A stretch of DNA of 64,000 nt, taken from Christensenellales bacterium. GTDB taxonomy: Bacteria; Bacillota; Clostridia; Christensenellales; JBMNTQ01. Below are positions 3,887 through 61,326 of this stretch, piece by piece. The DNA is taken from contig JBMNTR010000001.1 of NCBI GenBank assembly GCA_050945835.1, positions 9,384 through 73,383 on the forward strand, written 5' to 3'. A model generated the notes under the pieces. That model was not told the origin of the DNA. It searched no databases and saw nothing but the letters and a program-made list of their open reading frames with translations. Positions within the stretch are counted from its first letter, which is position 1; every line of letters starts with the position of its first letter. Position numbers and translations under genes: made by a program.

Positions 3887-5392
3887 GTGAGCGATTATGT
3901 GCTGGAGATGAAAAATATCTCCAAGACCTTCCCTGGTGTAAAGGCGCTGGACAATGTTTCTTTGGCGGTCAAGCCAGGAGAAGTCCACGCTGTCATGGGA
4001 GAGAATGGTGCAGGCAAATCGACTCTTATGAAAATCATTATGGGCATTTATACCGCTGATTCCGGCGAAATGCTGGTTGAAGGCCAAACGATTGTCAATC
4101 GCAATCCCCAGGAGGCGATGGAAAATGGAATCGCCATGATACATCAGGAGTTGAATCCGGTTTTGGATATGCGGGTATACGAGAATATTTTCATGGGGCG
4201 CGAAATTAGAACCAAGTTTGGAACGTATGACAAAAAAATGATGATCGCTGAGACCAAACGTCTGTTGGAAGAGATTGAAATCGACATTCCTGCTACCTGT
4301 GTGATGCGTGGACTCAGCGTGGCGCAGTGCCAACTGATTGAGATCGTCAAAGCCATTTCAATTCATGCACGTATTGTAGTGATGGATGAGCCAACCTCTG
4401 CGATTACCGACAAGGAAATAGATATTCTTTTCAACCAAATCAATTCCCTGAAGGCCAAGGGCGTGGCCATCATTTATATTTCACACAAAATAGATGAAAT
4501 ATTTCGTATCAGCGACCGAATTAGCGTGTATCGCGATGGATGCTATATTGGAACCGACGAATCGGCTAATTTGGATCATAATCAGTTGATCAAAATGATG
4601 GTGGGCAGAGAGATAACGGATATCTATCCCAAAACAGAGTATCCGATTGGTGATGTCGTGATGGAAGTCAAGAACTTATCAATGGGAAATAAGGTGGATC
4701 ATGTCAGCTTTAAGCTGCACCAGGGGGAAATTCTTGGCATTGTCGGTCTCGTGGGCGCGGGGCGCAGCGAATTGGTTGAGACCATTTTCGGCGTGCGGAA
4801 AAAAACTGCCGGCAAAATCAGCATCCGCGGTAAAGTTTTTAACGGTAAGAATCCAGAAGACGGGATCAACGCGAAGATCGCACTGATAACGGAAGACCGC
4901 AAGCTAACAGGTTTGAATTTGGTGGCGAGTGTGAAGGAAAATATTACGCTTGCTTCATTAAGACGTGTTTCAACGGCTGGAGTGCTCAGCACCAAAGAAG
5001 AGACACATTACTCGGAAAAGTATATCGATGCATTGAAAATTAAGACATCATCAAAAGATACTTTGACGGGCTGTCTGTCCGGCGGCAACCAGCAAAAAGT
5101 TGTTCTGGCCAAGTGGCTGCTGACAGAGCCGGATATCATCATTATGGATGAACCAACAAGGGGAATTGACGTTGGTGCCAAACGCGACATCTATCTATTG
5201 ATGGGCGAATTTGCCAAGCAAGGAAAGGCAGTCATTATGATTTCGTCTGAAATTCCTGAAATTATGGGCGTCAGCGATCGTGTGATTGTAATGGCGGAAG
5301 GCAAGATTACAGGCGAATTAAAACGAAGTGAATTTTCACAGGAGCGGATCATGGAATTTGCATCCAACATAAAGGGGGGAGCGGCTTGCTGA
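3887..5392 (+). CDS. Sugar ABC transporter ATP-binding protein (RbsA/MglA type, two intact NBDs)
   Basis: 501 aa. GTG start 6 nt after GAAGGAGG. First NBD: GENGAGKST, LSVAQCQ, VVMDEPTS, ISHK. Second NBD: GLVGAGRSE, LSGGNQQK, IIMDEPTRGID. Confidence 0.9.
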   Translation: MSDYVLEMKNISKTFPGVKALDNVSLAVKPGEVHAVMGENGAGKSTLMKIIMGIYTADSGEMLVEGQTIVNRNPQEAMENGIAMIHQELNPVLDMRVYENIFMGREIRTKFGTYDKKMMIAETKRLLEEIEIDIPATCVMRGLSVAQCQLIEIVKAISIHARIVVMDEPTSAITDKEIDILFNQINSLKAKGVAIIYISHKIDEIFRISDRISVYRDGCYIGTDESANLDHNQLIKMMVGREITDIYPKTEYPIGDVVMEVKNLSMGNKVDHVSFKLHQGEILGIVGLVGAGRSELVETIFGVRKKTAGKISIRGKVFNGKNPEDGINAKIALITEDRKLTGLNLVASVKENITLASLRRVSTAGVLSTKEETHYSEKYIDALKIKTSSKDTLTGCLSGGNQQKVVLAKWLLTEPDIIIMDEPTRGIDVGAKRDIYLLMGEFAKQGKAVIMISSEIPEIMGVSDRVIVMAEGKITGELKRSEFSQERIMEFASNIKGGAAC

Positions 5393-52221: not shown

Positions 52222-52551
52222 TTACAGGTTTTGATCGATCGCTTTGGCGGTTTCAAAAACGGAATTTTTGCTTGAAAGGATGGGGATCCCCTCCGTGTTG
52301 GCTTTTTGCAGGGCTTGGTCGTCCGCCTGTGCGCTTTCGGCCAGCACGATGCAGGACACATCCGTCAAAGACGCGACGGCCACCGCGTTGACATTGCCCA
52401 TAACGGTCACCCATGCGCTGCTTTCAGGTGCGCGCCCCATGGCGAAGCTCAGCAGATCGCAGCAATAGACGCTTGATATGGGTGCATCTAGCCCTTGTTC
52501 CCCTGCTAAGATATCAAAGCCCAGCCGATGCGCCGCTTCTTTTACCGTCAT
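52222..52551 (-). CDS. DRTGG-domain protein (copy B)
   Basis: 109 aa. The start overlaps the stop of the upstream gene (ATGA). DRTGG-like sequence (…CCDLLSFAMG…VTVMGNVNAVAVASL…). Confidence 0.7.
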   Translation of the reverse strand: MTVKEAAHRLGFDILAGEQGLDAPISSVYCCDLLSFAMGRAPESSAWVTVMGNVNAVAVASLTDVSCIVLAESAQADDQALQKANTEGIPILSSKNSVFETAKAIDQNL

Positions 52552-53882
52552 AGTTCCAAATCCTCCTCCGGTTCGTCGTGTTCAACCCACGGTTCGCTGT
52601 GTGCGTCTATACTGCTCAGCTTTGCCAGCTGCTGCGCGATATCATGCATGGTTTCCTTGAGCACGAATATGCACTCGTCCTTTTCGCAGTAGCCGCGGAC
52701 GATATCCTCCGCAAAAGCATGACAGGAGGGCGACCCGCAGGAGCCGCAGTCCAGCCCGCGCAGGCTTTCGGTGATGCGATCGATCTCCACCATCTTCTCC
52801 ATGGCGATGGCGAGGTCGTCGTCCAGCTGCATGACCGGCTTGTAGGTGACCGGCTGGTTCCACATCACACGATTGGGGTCGGAATCCGCCTTCAAGCCGT
52901 TGCGTGATGGCGGCAGCCCTTTGCGCAGCTGCTTGAGCTTTGCGCTCGCGATAAACGGATTCTGCACCGTCAACACACCGCCCACGCAGCCGCCCGGGCA
53001 GGCGTTTAACTCCACGAAATCCACGCTGAATTTATCGTCTTCCAGCTTTTCAAGCACACGGATGCAGTTTTCGATACCGTCTGCTGCCAGATATTGGTCG
53101 TCATTGGTGGCGAGCGCCTCGCCGCCGCTGCTTCCCCAGCGAATGCCCTCGCCGCCGGATTTCTGCAAGGCGGTATTCGCTTTTTCCGCCTTCATGATGT
53201 TGAGCAGCTTGGGATAGATCTCCTTGATGGCGATGGCCGCGTCCAGATTGCTTTGATCGCTGCCCAGCGGGTTGGCCACGGTGGTCACCTTGGCGGGGCA
53301 GGGCGAAATAAACACCGTGCCGATTTTTTCAGCACTCAGCCCCGTTTTCTTCATGGCGTTCTGCTTGGCAATATAGCCCGCGAGCTCGGCGGGCGTGATG
53401 ATGGGCAGTATATTGTCGATCAAATCCGGAAACCGCATTTGAATGAGCCTTGTGATGGTGGGGCAGGCCGAGCTGATGATGGGTTTTTTAAAATCACCCT
53501 TTTCAATAAATTTTCTGGTGGCGTCGGATATGATCTCGGCGGCGGTGGCCACTTCGAACACATCGTCAAACCCGAGCGCGAGCAACGCGTTGAGCAGCAC
53601 GTTGATGTTTTTGAGCTTGGTAAACTGCCCGTACAGCGAGGGCGCGGGCAGCGCGATGGTATACTCGAATTTATCGAGCACATCCAATGAATCATACACC
53701 GCTTTTTTAGCGTGATGCGGGCAAACGCGTATGCATTCGCCGCAGTCGATGCAGCGGTCCGACATGATTTCGGCTTTTCCTTTGCGAACCCGGATAGCTT
53801 CGGTCGGGCAGCGCTTTAAGCAGTTGGTGCAGCCTTTGCACCAATCGCGGCGCAATGTAACAGAATGAAAGATGGGATCCAA
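52548..53882 (-). CDS. [FeFe]-hydrogenase-like (HydS-type) Fe-S protein: 2x[4Fe-4S] ferredoxin domain, H-cluster-domain homologue, C-terminal Cys-rich Fe-S domain
   Basis: 444 aa. Ferredoxin motifs CKGCTNCLKRCP and CIDCGECIRVCP. H-domain motifs SSACPTI (versus TSCCP), SPCPAK (versus MPCxxK) and ACPGGCVGG. The C-terminus has LDCGSCGSPSCHAF. No PAS domain is visible. Confidence 0.8.
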   Translation of the reverse strand: MDPIFHSVTLRRDWCKGCTNCLKRCPTEAIRVRKGKAEIMSDRCIDCGECIRVCPHHAKKAVYDSLDVLDKFEYTIALPAPSLYGQFTKLKNINVLLNALLALGFDDVFEVATAAEIISDATRKFIEKGDFKKPIISSACPTITRLIQMRFPDLIDNILPIITPAELAGYIAKQNAMKKTGLSAEKIGTVFISPCPAKVTTVANPLGSDQSNLDAAIAIKEIYPKLLNIMKAEKANTALQKSGGEGIRWGSSGGEALATNDDQYLAADGIENCIRVLEKLEDDKFSVDFVELNACPGGCVGGVLTVQNPFIASAKLKQLRKGLPPSRNGLKADSDPNRVMWNQPVTYKPVMQLDDDLAIAMEKMVEIDRITESLRGLDCGSCGSPSCHAFAEDIVRGYCEKDECIFVLKETMHDIAQQLAKLSSIDAHSEPWVEHDEPEEDLEL

Positions 53883-53911: not shown

Positions 53912-54340
53912 TCAAGTTACATTTAATACGGTCATGGAAATGGTGGTGCCTTCGCCTATTGTGCTCGAAATCTCAAAATCATCCGCATATTTCTTCATAT
54001 TGGGGAGCCCCATACCTGCGCCAAACCCAAGATCGCGCACATCGTTTGAAGCTGTGGAATAGCCGGCCTTCATGGCCAGATCAATATTGGGTATGCCCGG
54101 GCCGTGATCCACAAGCTGCATGTCGATACGATCCGTATGGATGGTTGCGGTAATCTCGCCGCCATTGGCATGGATCACCATGTTGATCTCGCCTTCATAC
54201 AATGCGATCGCGACTTTACGCACGACTTCAGGCGGAAACCCCAGGCGCTTCAATGCTTTTTTTATGTTGCTGGAGGCTTCCCCCGCACGCGTGAAATCAT
54301 CGCCCGGCACTTGATAGCTGAGCACGATCGGAGCGCTCAT
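53912..54340 (-). CDS. RsbW/SpoIIAB-like serine-protein-kinase-type ATPase (HATPase_c_2)
   Basis: 142 aa with …EGEINMVIHANGG…VDHGPGIPN…GFGAGMGLPN…. The ATG overlaps the upstream stop (TAATG). Confidence 0.75.
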   Translation of the reverse strand: MSAPIVLSYQVPGDDFTRAGEASSNIKKALKRLGFPPEVVRKVAIALYEGEINMVIHANGGEITATIHTDRIDMQLVDHGPGIPNIDLAMKAGYSTASNDVRDLGFGAGMGLPNMKKYADDFEISSTIGEGTTISMTVLNVT

Positions 54341-54687
54341 TACTCCACACCGCCCCTCAATCCGTTTTCATAGAGTAACCCGCAGGCTGTGAACATATGA
54401 TGTTTGGTCGCGAGCAGGCAGATTTCCTTTTCTTTCGCCATTTCAATCGTTATTTCGTCCGGTTGTTTGTTGCGCACAAAAACGATGCATTCAATGTCCA
54501 TCATTTCCGCGGTGCGCACCACTTGCGGGTTCATCATACCGCTTAAAAGGACAGGCTGGTCTTTCGCAAAAGCGAGCACGTCGCTCATCAAGTCACTGCC
54601 GCAGGCGGTGTGGATCTCATGGTCCATCTTATTTGCGCAGCAGTATACCGTGGCGTCCAGGATTTCCTTTACTTCTTGAATTGTCAT
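54340..54687 (-). CDS. DRTGG-domain protein (copy A)
   Basis: 115 aa. It is the first gene of the minus-strand operon. The ATG follows GGGAGG. Confidence 0.7.
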   Translation of the reverse strand: MTIQEVKEILDATVYCCANKMDHEIHTACGSDLMSDVLAFAKDQPVLLSGMMNPQVVRTAEMMDIECIVFVRNKQPDEITIEMAKEKEICLLATKHHMFTACGLLYENGLRGGVE

Positions 54688-55062: not shown

Positions 55063-55563
55063 ATGCAAAACACTAAAACGAAGATCCCTTTTGAGGGCAG
55101 CGCGGAGCAGGAAAAGCAACTGCTCTCAGTCATCAACGGGCTCAAGAGCCAAAGAGGCTCGCTAATGCCCATCTTGCAGCAAGCGCAGGATATCTATGGT
55201 TATCTGCCCATAGAGGTGCAGACCATCATTGCGCGGGAACTGAAAATCCCTATCGAAGAGGTGTATGGGGTGGTGACATTCTACTCACAGTTTGCACTCA
55301 ACCCCAAAGGAAAGTACAGGATCGCCGTTTGTTTGGGTACGGCATGCTATGTGAAAGGCGCAGGCGACATTTTCGACGGCTTCTCACAGCGGCTGGGCAT
55401 ACAGAGCGGAGAATGCACGGAAGACGGGCAGTTTTCACTGGAGGCTTGCCGTTGCATCGGTGCGTGCGGGCTGGCGCCCGTTTTGATGGTAAACGACGAG
55501 GATGTGTTCGGGCAGGTGACGGTTGACGAACTCGACGACATCATCGGAAAATATAGGGCCTGA
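55063..55563 (+). CDS. hydC: NuoE-like [2Fe-2S] subunit of the NAD(P)H-linked [FeFe]-hydrogenase
   Basis: 166 aa. NuoE pattern …AVCLGTACYVKGA…EACRCIGACGLAPV…. Confidence 0.85.
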   Translation: MQNTKTKIPFEGSAEQEKQLLSVINGLKSQRGSLMPILQQAQDIYGYLPIEVQTIIARELKIPIEEVYGVVTFYSQFALNPKGKYRIAVCLGTACYVKGAGDIFDGFSQRLGIQSGECTEDGQFSLEACRCIGACGLAPVLMVNDEDVFGQVTVDELDDIIGKYRA

Positions 55564-55566
55564 TCC

Positions 55567-56112
55567 ATGCAGGAGCTGTCCATGCATGTGCTTGATATCG
55601 CGCAGAACTCCGTGCGTGCCGGCGCCAGCGAGATCACGGTGATGCTGGAGGAGGATATCAAAAACGACAGCCTAGTGGTTACGATTACTGACAACGGTTG
55701 CGGTATGACCGAAGAGCAAGTTGAAAAGGTGACGGATCCGTTTTTCACCACGCGCACCACGCGCAAGATAGGCTTAGGCATTCCGTTTTTCAAGATGGCG
55801 GCTGAAATGACGGGAGGAAGCTTTCGGATCCAATCAGAAGTGGGAAAAGGCACAAAGGTAACGGCTGCGTTTGTCCGCTCCCATATCGACCGGATGCCGC
55901 TCGGCGATATGAACGAGACGATGGGCCAGCTGATGTGTTTGAACGAGGGAATTGATATTACTTACGCATACCGGATCGACGGCAAGGAGTTTTCGGTATC
56001 TTCCAACAGCTTTTGCGAGGTGCTGGAGGGTGTGCCGCTGAACACACCGCAGGTAATACAGTTTGTGATTCAGCATCTTAAAGAAAATACAGACGAATTA
56101 ATTGAGGCATGA
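55567..56112 (+). CDS. Stand-alone histidine-kinase-like ATPase (HATPase_c only, no HisKA or sensor)
   Basis: 181 aa with …DNGCGMTEEQ…GLGIPF…GGSFRIQSEVGKGT…. It is embedded between hydC and the 2Fe-2S gene. Confidence 0.75.
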   Translation: MQELSMHVLDIAQNSVRAGASEITVMLEEDIKNDSLVVTITDNGCGMTEEQVEKVTDPFFTTRTTRKIGLGIPFFKMAAEMTGGSFRIQSEVGKGTKVTAAFVRSHIDRMPLGDMNETMGQLMCLNEGIDITYAYRIDGKEFSVSSNSFCEVLEGVPLNTPQVIQFVIQHLKENTDELIEA

Positions 56113-56134
56113 TTAACATCGAATGGAGGCATCT

Positions 56135-56503
56135 ATGAAAAACTTAGCGGAACTTCAGGCATTGAGGGAAAAGATGAAAGGCCAGATGGGCATACGGGCA
56201 GATGCACCGGAAAACATCCGTATTGTCGTAGGTATGGCAACTTGCGGGATTGCTGCGGGCGCCAGACCTGTGCTCACGGCGATCAACGAGGAGGTTTCAA
56301 AGCGCAATCTGCATAACGTCACCGTCGCGCAGACGGGCTGTATCGGTATTTGCCAGTTTGAGCCGGTTGTGGAGATCCATGCACCGGGCAAGGATAAGGT
56401 GACCTATGTGCGTATGACTCCGGAAAAAGCAGTACGGGTCGTTGTGGATCATATTGTCAACGGACACCCGGTTTCAGAGTATACAATCGGCGCCAACGTT
56501 TAA
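56135..56503 (+). CDS. Thioredoxin-like [2Fe-2S] ferredoxin-domain protein
   Basis: The ATG at 56135 lies 7 nt after TGGAGG. Motif: VGMATCGIAAGA…TGCIGICQFEP. Confidence 0.75.
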   Translation: MKNLAELQALREKMKGQMGIRADAPENIRIVVGMATCGIAAGARPVLTAINEEVSKRNLHNVTVAQTGCIGICQFEPVVEIHAPGKDKVTYVRMTPEKAVRVVVDHIVNGHPVSEYTIGANV

Positions 56504-56527: not shown

Positions 56528-58315
56528 ATGTATCGTTCACATATATTGGTTTGCGCCGGTACCGGCTGTGCGTCGTCCGGCAGCGAGAAACTGATTTCGG
56601 TTTTTCAAGAGAAGGTCGAAGAAAATGGTCTTTCAGAAGAAGTGAAAGTCGTTAAAACGGGCTGTTTCGGGCTTTGTGCCAACGGGCCTGTGGTCATCGT
56701 ATACCCCGAGGGTGTGTTCTATTCGAAAGTCACCGAAGAAGACGCCATCGAGATCATCAACGAGCATATCGTAAAGGGCCGCATCGTGACCAAGCTGCTC
56801 TATGAGGATTCTGTGCATGAAGATGTGATCGAATCCCTGGACAACACGGATTTCTACAGAAAGCAAAAACGTGTTGCGCTGCGCAACTGCGGTGTGATCA
56901 ATCCGGAGGATATCAACGAGTATATCGCATACGACGGCTATCAGGCGCTGGGCAAGGTGCTCACCGAGATGACGCCGGAAGATGTGATACAGACACTCAA
57001 AGATTCAGGGCTGCGCGGCCGTGGCGGCGCAGGGTTCCCTACAGGTGTCAAATGGTCGTTTGCGGCGTCGCAGCCTAAGGGCGTAAAGTATGTCTGCTGC
57101 AATGCCGACGAAGGTGACCCGGGCGCGTTTATGGATCGTTCCGTTTTAGAGGGCGACCCGCATGTGCTCATCGAAGCGATGACCATCGCAGGCTATGCGA
57201 TCGGATCCTCCCAGGGGTATATCTATGTAAGGGCTGAATACCCCATCGCTGTGAAGCGTCTGACCATCGCCATTCGCCAGGCTCGCGAAGCGGGCTTGCT
57301 GGGCAGGGATATTTTAGGCACAGGATTTGATTTCGATCTGGATATCCGCCTGGGTGCAGGTGCGTTTGTCTGCGGCGAGGAGACCGCGCTGATGACTTCT
57401 GTGGAAGGGCACAGAGGCGAACCCCGTCCGCGTCCGCCGTTCCCGGCGGTGAAAGGCTTGTTTGACAAGCCCACCATACTCAACAACGTGGAAACCTACG
57501 CGAATATTCCGCGCATCATATTAAATGGCCCGGAATGGTTTGCCTCCATGGGCACGGAGAAATCCAAGGGCACCAAAGTGTTCGCACTGGGCGGCAAGAT
57601 CAAGAACACAGGCCTTGTGGAAATCCCCATGGGCACTACGCTGCGCGAAGTCGTGGAAGAAATCGGCGGCGGCATTCCCGATGGAAAGAAATTCAAGGCG
57701 GCACAGACCGGCGGTCCTTCCGGCGGATGTATCTCCATAGAAAATATCGATATTCCCATCGATTACGACAACCTGATCTCCATTGGCTCCATGATGGGCT
57801 CGGGCGGGTTGATCGTAATGGACGAAGACAACTGCATGGTGGATATCGCGAAGTTCTTCATGGGCTTTATCGTGGATGAAAGCTGCGGCAAATGCTCCCC
57901 CTGCCGGATCGGCACGAAGCGGCTGTATGAGCTTTTGGAGAAGATCACCAGCGGCAACGGCGAGATGGAGGATTTAGACAAGCTGGATGCGCTGTGTATG
58001 CACATCAAGGCGAACTCCCTCTGCGGCCTGGGCCAAACGGCCGCAAACCCGGTGCTGTCCACGCTGCGCTATTTCCGCGATGAATATGTGGATCATATCC
58101 AGAACAAACGCTGCATGGCGGGCGTGTGCAAGGATCTGCTGTCCTATGAGATACTGCCCGACAAATGCATCGGGTGCACCGCGTGCGCGCGTGTCTGCCC
58201 CACCAACGCCATTTCGGGCAAGGTGAAGGCTGTGCACACCATCGACAAAGAAAAATGTATCAAGTGTGGCGCTTGTATCGAAAAATGCAAGTTTGGCGCT
58301 ATTATTAAGAAGTAA
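56528..58315 (+). CDS. hydB: NuoF-like flavoprotein subunit of the [FeFe]-hydrogenase (FMN/NAD(P)H-binding, multiple Fe-S clusters)
   Basis: 595 aa with GRGGAGFPTG, GAGAFVCGEETALM, CGKCSPCR and a C-terminal 2x CX2CX2CX3C. Confidence 0.9.
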   Translation: MYRSHILVCAGTGCASSGSEKLISVFQEKVEENGLSEEVKVVKTGCFGLCANGPVVIVYPEGVFYSKVTEEDAIEIINEHIVKGRIVTKLLYEDSVHEDVIESLDNTDFYRKQKRVALRNCGVINPEDINEYIAYDGYQALGKVLTEMTPEDVIQTLKDSGLRGRGGAGFPTGVKWSFAASQPKGVKYVCCNADEGDPGAFMDRSVLEGDPHVLIEAMTIAGYAIGSSQGYIYVRAEYPIAVKRLTIAIRQAREAGLLGRDILGTGFDFDLDIRLGAGAFVCGEETALMTSVEGHRGEPRPRPPFPAVKGLFDKPTILNNVETYANIPRIILNGPEWFASMGTEKSKGTKVFALGGKIKNTGLVEIPMGTTLREVVEEIGGGIPDGKKFKAAQTGGPSGGCISIENIDIPIDYDNLISIGSMMGSGGLIVMDEDNCMVDIAKFFMGFIVDESCGKCSPCRIGTKRLYELLEKITSGNGEMEDLDKLDALCMHIKANSLCGLGQTAANPVLSTLRYFRDEYVDHIQNKRCMAGVCKDLLSYEILPDKCIGCTACARVCPTNAISGKVKAVHTIDKEKCIKCGACIEKCKFGAIIKK

Positions 58316-58330: not shown

Positions 58331-60076
58331 ATGGAAACCGTTAATATGAAAATCAACGGAATTGAAGTCCAGGCGCCGAAGGATGCAACCATTTTGGAAG
58401 CTGCAAACGCCGCCGGGATTCGAATTCCTACTCTTTGCTATTTAAAAGACATCAACGCCATCGGCGCCTGCCGTATGTGTGTTGTGGAAGTCAAAGGTGC
58501 GCGCGCGCTGGCTGCTGCTTGTGTGCATCCGGTTGCGGAGGGCATGGAAGTGCTCACCAACACCGCCAAGCTGCGCGAATCGCGTAAGACGACATTAGAG
58601 CTTATATTGTCCAACCACCGGATGGATTGCCTGTCCTGCAAACGCAACCTAAGCTGCGAGCTGCAGTCGTTGTCCTTAGATTATGGTGTGGACCAGAAGC
58701 GCTTCATGGGCGCTGAGGATTTAAGCCCGCAAATCGAGGATTCGGCACCGCACCTCGTGCGCGACAATTCCAAGTGCATACTCTGCCGCCGGTGTGTGGC
58801 GGTGTGCAGGAGTAATCAGCATGTAGGCGTGATCGGGCCGAACGACCGCGGCTTTGAAACGCATATCGCAAGTCCGTTCGATCTTCCGCTGGATTCCACC
58901 TCCTGCGTATACTGCGGGCAGTGCATCGCCGTTTGTCCGACAGGCGCGCTGATGGAAAAGGATGATACGCGCAAGGTATGGGAAGCTTTGGCGGACGAAA
59001 CAAAGCATGTCGTGGTCGCGCCCGCGCCGTCTGTGCGCGCGCAGTTGGGCGAATGCTTCGATTACCCCATCGGCACGAACATACAGGGCAAGATGGTTGC
59101 GGCGCTGCGAAGGCTAGGCTTTGACGGCGTGTTCGACGTCGATACCGCGGCGGACATCACCATCATGGAAGAGGGAACCGAGTTCTTAAACCGCCTAAAG
59201 GGTGAAGGCGGCCCCCTGCCGCTGATCACTTCCTGCTCGCCTGGCTGGATTAAGTTCTGTGAGCATTATTATCCGGATATGCTGCCCAATGTATCGAGCT
59301 GCAAATCCCCGCAGCAGATGTATGGCGCGTTGATGAAGACATACTATGCCGAGCTGAAGGGCATCGACCCGAAGGATATGTTCGTGGTGAGCGTCATGCC
59401 CTGCACAGCGAAGAAATTCGAAGTGAAGCGCGACGACCAGAACGCGGCGGGATACTCCGATGTGGACGTATCGCTGACCACCCGTGAGCTGGCGAGCATG
59501 ATCAATGAAGCCGGCATCGTATTCCAATCGCTGCCGGATGAGGAGTTTGACCCGGCGTTTGGCATCGCGTCCGGCGCGGGGCATATCTTCGGCGCGACCG
59601 GCGGCGTGATGGAAGCGGCGCTGCGCACCGTGGCCGAGATCGTGACCGGCAAACCGTTGGAATCCCTCGATTTTGAGGATGTCCGCGGCACAGAGGGCAT
59701 AAAGGAAGCGGAATATGACCTTGCGGGTACGAAGGTGCGCGTCGCGGTCACATCCGGCCTTGCGAACGCGAAAAAGCTGCTGGATATGGTGAAATCCGGA
59801 GAAAAGGATTATCACTTCATCGAAGTCATGGCATGCCCCGGCGGCTGTGTCAACGGCGGCGGGCAGCCGTATCAGCCCGGTTATGTGCGCAACTTCGTGG
59901 ATCTGCGCGCGGAACGCGCTAAAGCGCTCTATGGGTCTGACAAAGAGATGGAGCTGCGCAAGAGCCATGAAAACCCGGTCGTTCAAACGATCTATGACGA
60001 CTATCTGGGCGAACCCGGCAGCCACAAGGCGCATGATATACTGCATACAACCTATGTGGAGCGCTGCGTGTATTAA
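58331..60076 (+). CDS. hydA: [FeFe]-hydrogenase catalytic subunit (M3 architecture) with a variant P1 motif
   Basis: 581 aa. N-terminal 2Fe-2S, HX3CX2CX5C and 2x[4Fe-4S] sites. H-domain motifs TSCSPGW (canonical TSCCPxW), MPCTAKKFE and EVMACPGGCVNGGGQP. Confidence 0.9.
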   Translation: METVNMKINGIEVQAPKDATILEAANAAGIRIPTLCYLKDINAIGACRMCVVEVKGARALAAACVHPVAEGMEVLTNTAKLRESRKTTLELILSNHRMDCLSCKRNLSCELQSLSLDYGVDQKRFMGAEDLSPQIEDSAPHLVRDNSKCILCRRCVAVCRSNQHVGVIGPNDRGFETHIASPFDLPLDSTSCVYCGQCIAVCPTGALMEKDDTRKVWEALADETKHVVVAPAPSVRAQLGECFDYPIGTNIQGKMVAALRRLGFDGVFDVDTAADITIMEEGTEFLNRLKGEGGPLPLITSCSPGWIKFCEHYYPDMLPNVSSCKSPQQMYGALMKTYYAELKGIDPKDMFVVSVMPCTAKKFEVKRDDQNAAGYSDVDVSLTTRELASMINEAGIVFQSLPDEEFDPAFGIASGAGHIFGATGGVMEAALRTVAEIVTGKPLESLDFEDVRGTEGIKEAEYDLAGTKVRVAVTSGLANAKKLLDMVKSGEKDYHFIEVMACPGGCVNGGGQPYQPGYVRNFVDLRAERAKALYGSDKEMELRKSHENPVVQTIYDDYLGEPGSHKAHDILHTTYVERCVY

Positions 60077-60482: not shown

Positions 60483-60764
60483 CTATTCTTCAGACTTAGA
60501 GAGTGCATATAAAAAATCATAGGCCTTTTGATAATCGTCATTTGAGGTCACATAGAAAACCCCCTGCCGTGTGTTCAGTGAATCGGGCAGCACACAGCGG
60601 CGTGTGCAGCCGCTGAGTATGATGGCGGCGTCGTAAACAGTTCGTTCGGAGGCGCCGAGAAAGGCAATATGGGGGAATGCAGCCTTGAGCTTGTCCGCCA
60701 ATGCAGTGCGGTCATAGTAGGGGTTACAGCCCCCGCAGTATTTGATGGCTACTTCCACAGGCAA
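60483..60764 (-). CDS. Small Cys-motif protein (YCGGCNP…GCTRRC)
   Basis: 93 aa. It starts 10 nt downstream of mntP on the same strand. Confidence 0.5.
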   Translation of the reverse strand: MPVEVAIKYCGGCNPYYDRTALADKLKAAFPHIAFLGASERTVYDAAIILSGCTRRCVLPDSLNTRQGVFYVTSNDDYQKAYDFLYALSKSEE

Positions 60765-60774
60765 AGCTCCTTTT

Positions 60775-61326
60775 TCATCCGGTGATGAGTATTTTAAAAC
60801 CGATTGCGATGAGCACGCACCCGCCCGAGAACACGGCGCGCTTTTGAAACAGATTTCCGAGTTTTTTACCGATAAGCATGCCGGCCATGCAGATGCAGAA
60901 GGTGACTGCGCCTATGAACAGGCAGGAGAGCACAACGTCCACATGCAGCAGCGCCAAGCCCAGACCCACGGCAAACGCGTCGATGCTGGTTGCCAAAGCC
61001 ATGACCAGCAGCCGGACGGTGGAGACGGGATTCTTTTCACAGCTTTGTTCACCGCAATGGAAAGAATCATAGATCATCTTGGCACCGATGATACCGAGCA
61101 GCAAAAAGGCGATCCATTGCCCAAACGCCGCGATATAGCGGGCGACATTGGCGCCGGCCAGCCAGCCTAAAGCGGGCATGAGCGCCTGAAATCCGCCGAA
61201 GAAAAGAGCTGTTTTGAGGGTTTGCCAAATTGTGGGGCACTTGAGCAGTATACCGTTTGTCACGGAGACGGTAAATGCGTCCATTGCCAACCCGACCGCC
61301 AACAGGAGTAATTCAAATATACTCAA
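60775..61326 (-). CDS. mntP: Manganese efflux pump MntP
   Basis: 183 aa. TTG start lies 7 nt after GGAGG. LAMDAFTVS… and …ATSIDAFAVG are the duplicated MntP (DUF204) motifs. Confidence 0.85.
   Translation of the reverse strand: MSIFELLLLAVGLAMDAFTVSVTNGILLKCPTIWQTLKTALFFGGFQALMPALGWLAGANVARYIAAFGQWIAFLLLGIIGAKMIYDSFHCGEQSCEKNPVSTVRLLVMALATSIDAFAVGLGLALLHVDVVLSCLFIGAVTFCICMAGMLIGKKLGNLFQKRAVFSGGCVLIAIGFKILITG

Follow-up and report, generated by a model that had tools for sequence, protein, structure and literature searches.

The best PDB match for each of the HydA, HydB, and HydC proteins described here is a subunit of A. woodii HydABC(D). In the catalytic subunit of that complex, HydA1, a Cys ligand of the cubane of the H-cluster "is replaced by a serine residue (Ser301Aw)" (Katsyv et al., JACS 2023, PMC10021017). 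A. woodii HydABC is active at a level comparable to that of T. kivui HydABC and displays canonical H-cluster states by FTIR, with a signature that is unaffected by Ser301; in the cryo-EM map at 3.4 Å, Ser301 was modelled as a ligand of the cubane (PMC10021017). T. kivui HydABC (8A6T) and T. maritima HydABC (7P5H) are trimeric NuoEF-linked bifurcating enzymes, the HydA fold of which is shared with HydA studied here, but both have the canonical motif (FTSCCPSW...STARSPQQ and FTSCCPAW...SSVKSPQQ, respectively) and an all-Cys cubane. The group A1 prototype, CpI of C. pasteurianum (e.g., 4XDC), contains TSCCPGW and SSAKSPQQ and is a monomeric, ferredoxin-dependent enzyme without HydB or HydC partners.

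Ser at the position of CpI Cys300 was reported in ~20% of sequences (Kertess et al. 2017, Chem Sci, PMC5855289), and TSCSPGW was noted in trimeric hydrogenases of Melainabacteria (Di Rienzi et al., eLife 2013, PMC3787301). In contrast, the engineered C115S variant of C. reinhardtii HydA1 (CrHydA1) lost most of its [4Fe-4S] cluster, did not bind it stably, and had an activity of <1 unit (Kertess et al. 2017, PMC5855289).

A hydC-hydB-hydA operon in the window

The window is the whole 64,000-nucleotide stretch of DNA. Based on ORFs and Pfam matches, we confirmed the hydC-hydB-hydA operon of the preliminary description. hydB and hydC lie just upstream of hydA on the same strand, and the gene order is hydC, a HATPase_c gene, a gene for a small 2Fe-2S ferredoxin, hydB, and hydA:

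55063-55563, forward strand: hydC, NuoE-like [2Fe-2S] subunit (Pfam PF01257; best PDB match A. woodii HydC, 7Q4V_C, E = 2.3e-51)
55567-56112, forward strand: gene for a HATPase_c-domain protein, between hydC and hydB (Pfam PF02518, E = 1.6e-17)
56123-56503, forward strand: gene for a small thioredoxin-like [2Fe-2S] ferredoxin of 126 aa, between hydC and hydB (weak match to Pfam PF01257)
56528-58315, forward strand: hydB, NuoF-like FMN/NAD(H) subunit (Pfam; best PDB match A. woodii HydB, 7Q4V_B, E = 1.4e-275)
58331-60076, forward strand: hydA, catalytic [FeFe]-hydrogenase subunit of 581 aa (ORF list, Pfam, NCBIfam, PDB match)

According to Pfam, HydB begins with a thioredoxin-like 2Fe-2S domain, and its C-terminal domain is a 2x[4Fe-4S] ferredoxin. 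In the PDB, the 126-aa ferredoxin matches NfnB and HydB-type subunits in their N-terminal domains (best E = 3.6e-18). The F-domain of HydA contains a [2Fe-2S] cluster, a His-ligated [4Fe-4S] cluster, and two [4Fe-4S] clusters; the H-domain and an SSU-like C terminus come after it, in line with Pfam matches to Fer2_4, NADH-G_4Fe-4S_3, Fer4, Fe_hyd_lg_C (PF02906, E = 1.6e-99), and Fe_hyd_SSU. HydA scored 540.8 bits against TIGR02512, the H-domain of group A [FeFe]-hydrogenases (cutoff 405.95), and 897.5 bits against NCBIfam NF040763, "NADH-dependent [FeFe] hydrogenase, group A6" (cutoff 765).

The best PDB match of HydA is 7Q4V_A (E = 1.2e-215). An AlphaFold2 model of HydA of moderate quality (mean pLDDT 71.4), which we used for the fold match alone, superimposed on 7Q4W_A with a TM score of 0.82 at 54% identity. 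HydA and A. woodii HydA1 (583 aa) share their domain architecture, although they are only ~54% identical. CpI is 43% identical to HydA and shares the layout of the F- and H-domains, the proton pathway, and P2 and P3. This HydABC is predicted to be an NADH- and ferredoxin-linked complex of the A. woodii type that is electron bifurcating or confurcating.

HydA has Ser at the position of a cubane ligand

Aligning HydA residue by residue with CpI (1C4A/4XDC) matched CpI T297-S298-C299-C300-P301 to HydA T300 to P304 and CpI S319-S320-A321-K322 to HydA S322 to K325, in agreement with the numbering of Cys299 and Cys300 given in the preliminary description. The relevant motifs are the following:

59228-59248, forward strand: P1/L1 motif TSCSPGW (T300 S301 C302 S303 P304 G305 W306), encoded by ACT TCC TGC TCG CCT GGC TGG in frame with the 581-aa ORF
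59294-59317, forward strand: SSCKSPQQ, in which Ser322 corresponds to CpI Ser319 of the proton pathway and Cys324 (TGC, 59300-59302) to CpI Ala321
59396-59422, forward strand: P2/L2 motif MPCTAKKFE, in which Cys358 corresponds to the cubane ligand CpI Cys355
59822-59869, forward strand: P3/L3 motif EVMACPGGCVNGGGQP, in which Cys502 corresponds to CpI Cys499 and Cys506 to CpI Cys503, the thiolate of which bridges to [2Fe]H

Both the sequence and the frame of TSCSPGW were confirmed. Ser303 (TCG, 59237-59239) occupies the position of CpI Cys300, a ligand of [4Fe-4S]H, and Cys302 (59234-59236) is the counterpart of the proton-relay residue CpI Cys299 in alignments to both CpI and A. woodii HydA1. 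A. woodii HydA1 (7Q4V, 7Q4W, 8A5E) has the same P1 variant together with SSCKSPQ (ITSCSPGWIKF...LSSCKSPQN).

The other motifs are intact, as the preliminary description had stated. HydA matches the group A consensus sequences of P2 (MPCxxKxxE) and P3 (ExMxCxxGCxxGGGQP). In a 50-sequence alignment, the P2 residues M356, P357, C358, K361, K362, and E364 are invariant, and so are the accessory-cluster ligands C36/C47/C50/C64, H96/C100/C103/C109, C149/C152/C155/C159, and C192/C195/C198/C202. By the rule that [4Fe-4S]H is held by four Cys residues (CpI C300, C355, C499, and C503), HydA has three of the four (Cys358, Cys502, and Cys506) and Ser303 at the fourth position. This rule is too strict because active A. 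woodii HydA1 and ~16 to 19% of the family representatives also carry Ser, and Ser303 is no argument against membership in group A.

Ser is a widespread natural alternative to Cys300

Among the 120 nearest database homologues of HydA (74 to 85% identity), 119 contain xSCSPxW, and Ser is present in 79 of 80 loci from GTDB species representatives (65 to 80% identity), in which it is encoded by TCG (23 loci), AGC (20), TCA (16), TCT (10), TCC (9), and AGT (1). The use of six codons indicates that Ser has been under long-term selection at this site rather than being introduced by error. A protein identical to HydA (P0001) is recorded from both NCBI and JGI, and a TSCCP revertant is present within the clade of HydA itself.

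Among representatives of diverse 50%-identity clusters, ~16 to 19% have Ser at the Cys300 position (24 when all 153 aligned stretches are counted, 21 when the count is restricted to the 112 full H-domains). P2 is intact in these Ser-type representatives wherever the sequence is untruncated, and most of them also have an intact P3. Fitch counting on a neighbor-joining tree of the 112 representatives gave ~16 changes between Cys and Ser. Replacement of Cys by Ser is thus common in nature and evolved repeatedly. It has also been described before, and the TSCSPGW variant of HydA is known rather than new. The preliminary description had presented the variant as a departure from the canonical motif that was not known to have been described for NuoEF-linked hydrogenases. 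The large alignment shows instead that TSCSP is common, and active, in this subgroup, and both A. woodii HydABC and the trimeric Melainabacteria enzymes are published cases (PMC10021017, PMC3787301). The two Melainabacteria ACD20 hydrogenases, which are of the confurcating type, share TSCSPGW with HydA; in both proteins, a Cys of motif 3 is also changed to Ile, whereas P3 of HydA is intact (PMC3787301).

These data leave a negligible probability that TSCSPGW reflects a sequencing or assembly error or that hydA is decaying or inactive. The sole support for this explanation is the departure from the textbook motif. Against it, independent assemblies of practically all relatives encode Ser, HydA retains every other cluster ligand and motif, the NF040763 score is far above its cutoff, and A. 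woodii HydA1 is a characterized, active homologue. An assembly or base-call error, already held to be unlikely in the preliminary description, is refuted by the comparative data (119/120 homologues and 79/80 species loci, from independent assemblies). For annotation, a rule based on TSCCPxW should not brand TSCSP hydrogenases as defective.

Cys302 is conserved together with the proton pathway

Cys302, Glu281, Glu284, Arg288, and Ser322 of HydA align with the proton pathway residues C299, E279, E282, R286, and S319 of CpI; among 50 homologues, Arg288 is nearly invariant and the other four do not vary at all. This conservation bears on a second explanation, in which the register shifts such that Cys302 ligates the cubane and the proton relay is lost, leaving an altered or slow enzyme. 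A hint in this direction comes from CrHydA1 C115A, in which the neighboring Cys114 was suggested as a possible substitute ligand (Kertess et al., PMC5855289). However, keeping the entire pathway would serve no purpose if the relay Cys were lost, a change (C299S) that gives an inactive enzyme according to a review (PMC11376134), and A. woodii HydABC, in which the motif is identical, has the canonical FTIR states and the activity described above (PMC10021017). We consider a register shift highly improbable. The conserved proton-relay set and the active A. woodii enzyme likewise disfavor the altered or lost activity that had been put forward together with it.

The Cys of SSCKSPQQ is not associated with Ser

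A third explanation is that Cys324, at the position of CpI Ala321, serves as the fourth cubane ligand in place of the lost Cys; the preliminary description had suggested that this A-to-C change might be compensatory. Cys324 is invariant in the close clade of HydA, its equivalent accompanies Ser in A. woodii HydA1, and the corresponding residue in characterized enzymes with Cys300 is Ala in CpI and T. kivui HydA1 and Val in T. maritima HydA. In joint counts drawn from ~150 representatives of 50%-identity clusters, 64 sequences combine CC with Cys321, 44 CC with another residue, 16 CS with Cys321, and 8 CS with another residue (Fisher p = 0.65). Even the diverse TSCCP representatives have Cys at position 321 more often than any other residue. 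Moreover, proteins with intact P2 and P3 combine TSCSP with STAK or SSAK (P0122, P0238, and P0210), and CrHydA1 natively has SSCK, yet its C115S variant loses the cluster (PMC5855289). Relocation of the ligand to Cys324 is thus very unlikely and largely refuted by the absence of association, the TSCSP enzymes with Ala321, and the SSCK motif of CrHydA1. Accordingly, annotation should not treat this Cys of SSCKSPQQ as a compensating ligand.

Ser303 is the probable fourth ligand of the cubane

By analogy to A. woodii HydABC, the explanation that we favor, with a probability of roughly 0.7, is that HydA is the catalytic subunit of an A. woodii-type HydABC and would be an ordinary, active enzyme with Ser303 as the fourth ligand of the cubane. 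The cubane would be held by the three Cys residues Cys358, Cys502, and the bridging Cys506, and the oxygen of Ser303 would most likely bind the fourth iron. Cys302 would still relay protons to the azadithiolate amine, and it is because Cys302 keeps this role that a normal, active hydrogenase is expected. Of the options listed in the preliminary description, ligation of the cubane by Ser matches the model for the closest characterized homologue, A. woodii HydA1 with Ser301 (PMC10021017).

Fe-O(Ser) bonding is itself a modelled feature only, based on cryo-EM of A. woodii HydABC at 3.4 Å, and this is a point against Ser ligation. In the literature searched, we found no cubane-ligand-specific spectroscopy, and no study later than Katsyv et al. 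2023 was found to have taken up the serine-ligated H-cluster.

Alternatively, a non-protein ligand such as water or hydroxide could bind the fourth iron, with Ser303 only hydrogen-bonding to the cluster. The 3.4-Å cryo-EM model, the sole structural evidence for Ser ligation, is too coarse to define an Fe-O bond; in addition, natural coordination of a [4Fe-4S] cluster by Ser was not known as of 2017, and CrHydA1 C115S does not hold its cluster (Kertess et al., PMC5855289). On the other hand, it is Ser rather than Ala, Gly, or Thr that is fixed in 79 of the 80 species loci, via six synonymous codons. In the set of diverse representatives, sequences that retain Cys299 have Ala or Thr at this site in single cases each, compared with 24 cases for Ser. 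Given the fixation of Ser and the rarity of Ala and Thr, we argue that a hydroxyl is needed at ligand distance, and we regard a non-protein fourth ligand as unlikely. If the fourth iron were nevertheless not bound by Ser, or if Ser tuned the potential of the cubane for bifurcation, the large gut and rumen clade would provide a natural test set.

Tolerance of Ser depends on the protein background

The C115S substitution in CrHydA1 reproduces, at the position of CpI Cys300, the chemical change that HydA carries naturally, and SSCKSPQ is also present in the algal enzyme. Because CrHydA1 C115S loses its cluster while the natural Ser-type A. woodii HydA1 is active, tolerance of Ser depends on the protein background, and Ser ligation is not generally tolerated.

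A stronger version, that natural Ser-type H-clusters function only in permissive backgrounds that involve second-shell determinants, is a tentative idea that we consider doubtful. It draws on the failure of the substitution in CrHydA1, on the free toggling between Cys and Ser in HydABC-type enzymes (~16 switches among 112 representatives), on the use of both Ser codon families, and on the TSCCP revertant within the clade. A search for H-domain positions covarying with Ser300 in 12 Ser-type and 76 Cys-type representatives identified no determinant after correction for ~5,800 tests. The highest-ranking positions, both of which fail the correction and come from a comparison without control for phylogeny, were His at HydA position 312 (6/12 versus 3/76, p = 1.2e-4) and Gly at HydA position 501 (4/12 versus 0/76, p = 2.1e-4).

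Physiological setting of the locus

While A. woodii is an acetogen, the host of this locus belongs to an uncultured gut or rumen-type lineage of Clostridia (Christensenellales, NCBI label), with a genome that resembles those of Christensenellales/Oscillospirales from the gut. As the host is not an acetogen, the physiological direction of the complex is, in comparison with A. woodii, probably H2 production, i.e., confurcation. None of the maturase genes hydE, hydF, and hydG is among seven large ORFs scanned at 29-39 kb, six of which encode Ddl, MurF, GalU, AhcY, a deaminase, and a B12-radical-SAM protein, whereas the seventh has no assignment. The window also contains a separate gene related to hydS:

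52548-53882, reverse strand: HydS-like gene with SSACP (ORF list, Pfam)

Assignment of HydA itself to the sensory group C hydrogenases of the HydS type was ruled out, as HydA keeps Cys302 and the full proton pathway.

HydA carries a serine at a cubane ligand position

In the window, hydA stands last in a gene cluster whose members share one strand.

55063-55563, +, hydC, NuoE-like
55567-56112, +, HATPase_c gene (histidine-kinase-like ATPase domain protein, 181 aa), between hydC and hydB
56123-56503, +, thioredoxin-like [2Fe-2S] ferredoxin gene (126 aa), between hydC and hydB
56528-58315, +, hydB, NuoF-like
58331-60076, +, hydA, 581-aa ORF

In frame with the hydA ORF, nucleotides 59228-59248 read ACT TCC TGC TCG CCT GGC TGG (T300-S301-C302-S303-P304-G305-W306), bearing out the preliminary description of the P1 motif as TSCSPGW. 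P2 (MPCTAKKFE) and P3 (EVMACPGGCVNGGGQP) are both intact, as had been stated. Using a residue-by-residue alignment with CpI (1C4A/4XDC), we confirmed the numbering of the preliminary description: C302 corresponds to the proton relay C299, S303 to the cubane ligand position C300, and S322-S323-C324-K325 to S319-S320-A321-K322. By its Pfam domains (Fer2_4, NADH-G_4Fe-4S_3, a 2x[4Fe-4S] ferredoxin domain, Fe_hyd_lg_C [E = 1.6e-99], and Fe_hyd_SSU), HydA is built as a complete CpI/HydABC-type catalytic subunit; it scores 897.5 bits against NCBIfam NF040763, "NADH-dependent [FeFe] hydrogenase, group A6" (cutoff, 765).

The best PDB matches of HydA, HydB, and HydC are, in the electron-bifurcating HydABC complex of Acetobacterium woodii, the corresponding chains 7Q4V_A (E = 1.2e-215), 7Q4V_B (E = 1.4e-275), and 7Q4V_C (E = 2.3e-51), and the AlphaFold2 model of HydA (mean pLDDT 71.4) has 7Q4W_A as its top structural match (TM 0.82, 54% identity). 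A. woodii HydA1 (PDB sequence ITSCSPGWIKF...LSSCKSPQN) shares both the Ser and the downstream Cys with HydA. For the 181-aa ATPase protein and the 126-aa ferredoxin, which is similar to NfnB/HydB-type subunits in their N-terminal domain (9N5U_B, E = 3.6e-18), no counterpart chain was detected in the A. woodii cryo-EM entries. Immediately after hydA, both on the minus strand, come a Cys-containing 93-aa ORF (60483-60764, -; including KYCGGCNPYYDR) with no Pfam match and then an MntP manganese-efflux gene (60775-61326, -).

The serine is conserved among close relatives and recurs across the family

Of the 120 proteins nearest to HydA in the database (74-100% identity), one is identical to it; P1 is TSCSPGW in 116, TSCSPAW in 2, and TSCSPSW in 1. 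A scan with one genome per GTDB species gave 80 loci (65-80% identity). They all belong to Clostridia MAGs that derive from gut, rumen, or digester, and have TSCSP in 76, SSCSP in 2, TSCSS in 1, and TSCCP in 1. Ser is thus present in 79/80 species loci, which speaks against an assembly error; judged from these sequences, TSCSPGW is neither an error nor a one-off.

The six Ser codons are all used across species (TCG 23, AGC 20, TCA 16, TCT 10, TCC 9, and AGT 1), so Ser has been maintained despite extensive synonymous turnover. Going between TCN (58 loci) and AGY (21 loci) by single-base steps requires passing Cys (TGY) or Thr (ACN), and the use of both codon families is a hint of repeated Cys/Ser interconversion or of separate origins from TGC. 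The sole TSCCPGW is in an Oscillospiraceae MAG (L058; CAZIVK010000074.1, around position 4869). There the codon is TGC and SSCKSPQQ is present as well; the locus represents either a reversion or an ancestral state retained within an otherwise all-Ser clade.

We recovered 150 diverse HydA relatives by searching 1.84 billion 50%-identity cluster representatives exhaustively with HMMER. Positions 299-300 are CC in 108 and CS in 24 of the aligned stretches, the remainder being non-catalytic-looking variants, and Ser occupies position 300 in 21/112 full H-domains (19%). Apart from truncated sequences, all CS proteins retain P2, and P3 is present in most of them. Fitch parsimony on a rough neighbour-joining tree requires ~16 Cys/Ser changes, so the switch is recurrent and not limited to one clade. 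One representative (P0121; 4122 residues) has seven separate hydrogenase-like matched stretches (1909 bits, 44% identity) and is either a giant multi-H-domain protein or a concatenation/gene-calling artefact.

Our frequency of 16-19% of representatives agrees with the ~20% of sequences reported by Kertess et al. (2017, PMC5855289). The Ser-for-Cys variant is already known: the suggestion that it was undescribed for NuoEF-linked hydrogenases is contradicted by A. woodii HydABC (PMC10021017) and by the TSCSPGW that Di Rienzi et al. (eLife 2013, PMC3787301) noted in Melainabacteria, in trimeric confurcating hydrogenases. Being common in this subgroup and carried by the active A. woodii enzyme, it is unremarkable in the sense that the preliminary description itself had allowed for.

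No support for Cys at position 321 as compensation for the serine

The Cys of SSCKSPQQ had been proposed as possibly compensatory. At position 321, Cys outnumbers every other residue whatever stands at 300, and the two positions are not associated among the diverse representatives (odds ratio 1.4, Fisher p = 0.65).

Residues at positions 299-300 and 321 in diverse representatives
CC at 299-300: Cys321, 64; other residue at 321, 44
CS at 299-300: Cys321, 16; other residue at 321, 8 (6 Ala, 2 Thr)

TSCSP is also combined with STAK or SSAK in P0122, P0238, and P0210, whose P2 and P3 are intact, and L058 has both cysteines (TSCCP and SSCK). Chlamydomonas HydA1 naturally has TSCCPGW...SSCKSPQ, and in its C115S variant (CpI C300S) most of the [4Fe-4S] cluster is lost and the activity is <1 unit (PMC5855289); Cys321 therefore does not rescue the missing ligand. 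On these four grounds, we rejected an Ala-to-Cys change at 321 as compensation. The pattern among solved enzymes (Ser with Cys321 in A. woodii; Cys with Ala in CpI and T. kivui and with Val in T. maritima) is a small-sample coincidence.

A substitution that is lethal in algal HydA1 is gained and lost freely among HydABC-type enzymes; its effect is thus background dependent. In a simple association scan, no other position tracked Ser300 past multiple-testing correction. This dependence is a specialists' question on a known variant and is not peculiar to this window.

Ligation of the cubane

The observation behind the preliminary description is confirmed, and its interpretation is supported in part. 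A register shift in which Cys302 becomes the cubane ligand is unlikely because the proton-transfer set (Cys302, Glu281, Glu284, Arg288, and Ser322) varies little or not at all among 50 homologues and an enzyme that lacks the relay Cys is reported to be inactive (PMC11376134). In the best-supported reading, the cubane would be bound by Cys358, Cys502, the bridging Cys506, and the Ser303 oxygen, as modelled for Ser301 in the A. woodii structure, which Katsyv et al. solved together with that of T. kivui HydABC (JACS 2023, PMC10021017); the [2Fe]H site and the proton pathway would be normal. Ligation by Ser, one of the options initially raised, thus has a published model in its favor, in which the Fe-O bond is modelled rather than demonstrated because the map is at 3.4 Å. 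A three-Cys cubane with water or hydroxide as a further ligand is a minor rival; against it, Ser alone is retained across the clade, never Ala, Gly, or Thr, which argues that the hydroxyl at position 300 is functionally required.

The literature searched yielded no cluster-specific spectroscopy. Oxygen ligands usually lower the reduction potential of [4Fe-4S] clusters, by which a serine ligand could tune the H-cluster. The bridging thiolate in CpI is conventionally the second P3 Cys (C503). The main text of PMC10021017 gives the di-iron-bridging residue as Cys354Tk/Cys356Aw, which is the P2 Cys; the ligand description may be imprecise, which is one more reason to regard ligation by serine as a model. 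No obvious effect of an oxygen ligand on the H-cluster is seen in the 2023 FTIR data of Katsyv et al. (PMC10021017).

A HydS-like gene cluster lies beside the operon

Upstream of hydC-hydA and divergently transcribed from it is a cluster around a second [FeFe]-hydrogenase homologue.

52548-53882, -, HydS-like protein, 444 aa
51497-52147, 52222-52551, 53912-54340, and 54340-54687, all -, its neighbours: two DRTGG-domain genes, a HATPase_c_2 gene, and a PHP-domain gene

The HydS-like protein has SSACP as P1, with Ala where the proton-relay Cys would be, SPCPAKV as P2, ELNACPGGCVGG as P3, and a PF04060 Fe-S domain at the C-terminus. The cluster resembles a sensory/regulatory module of group C beside the HydABC operon.
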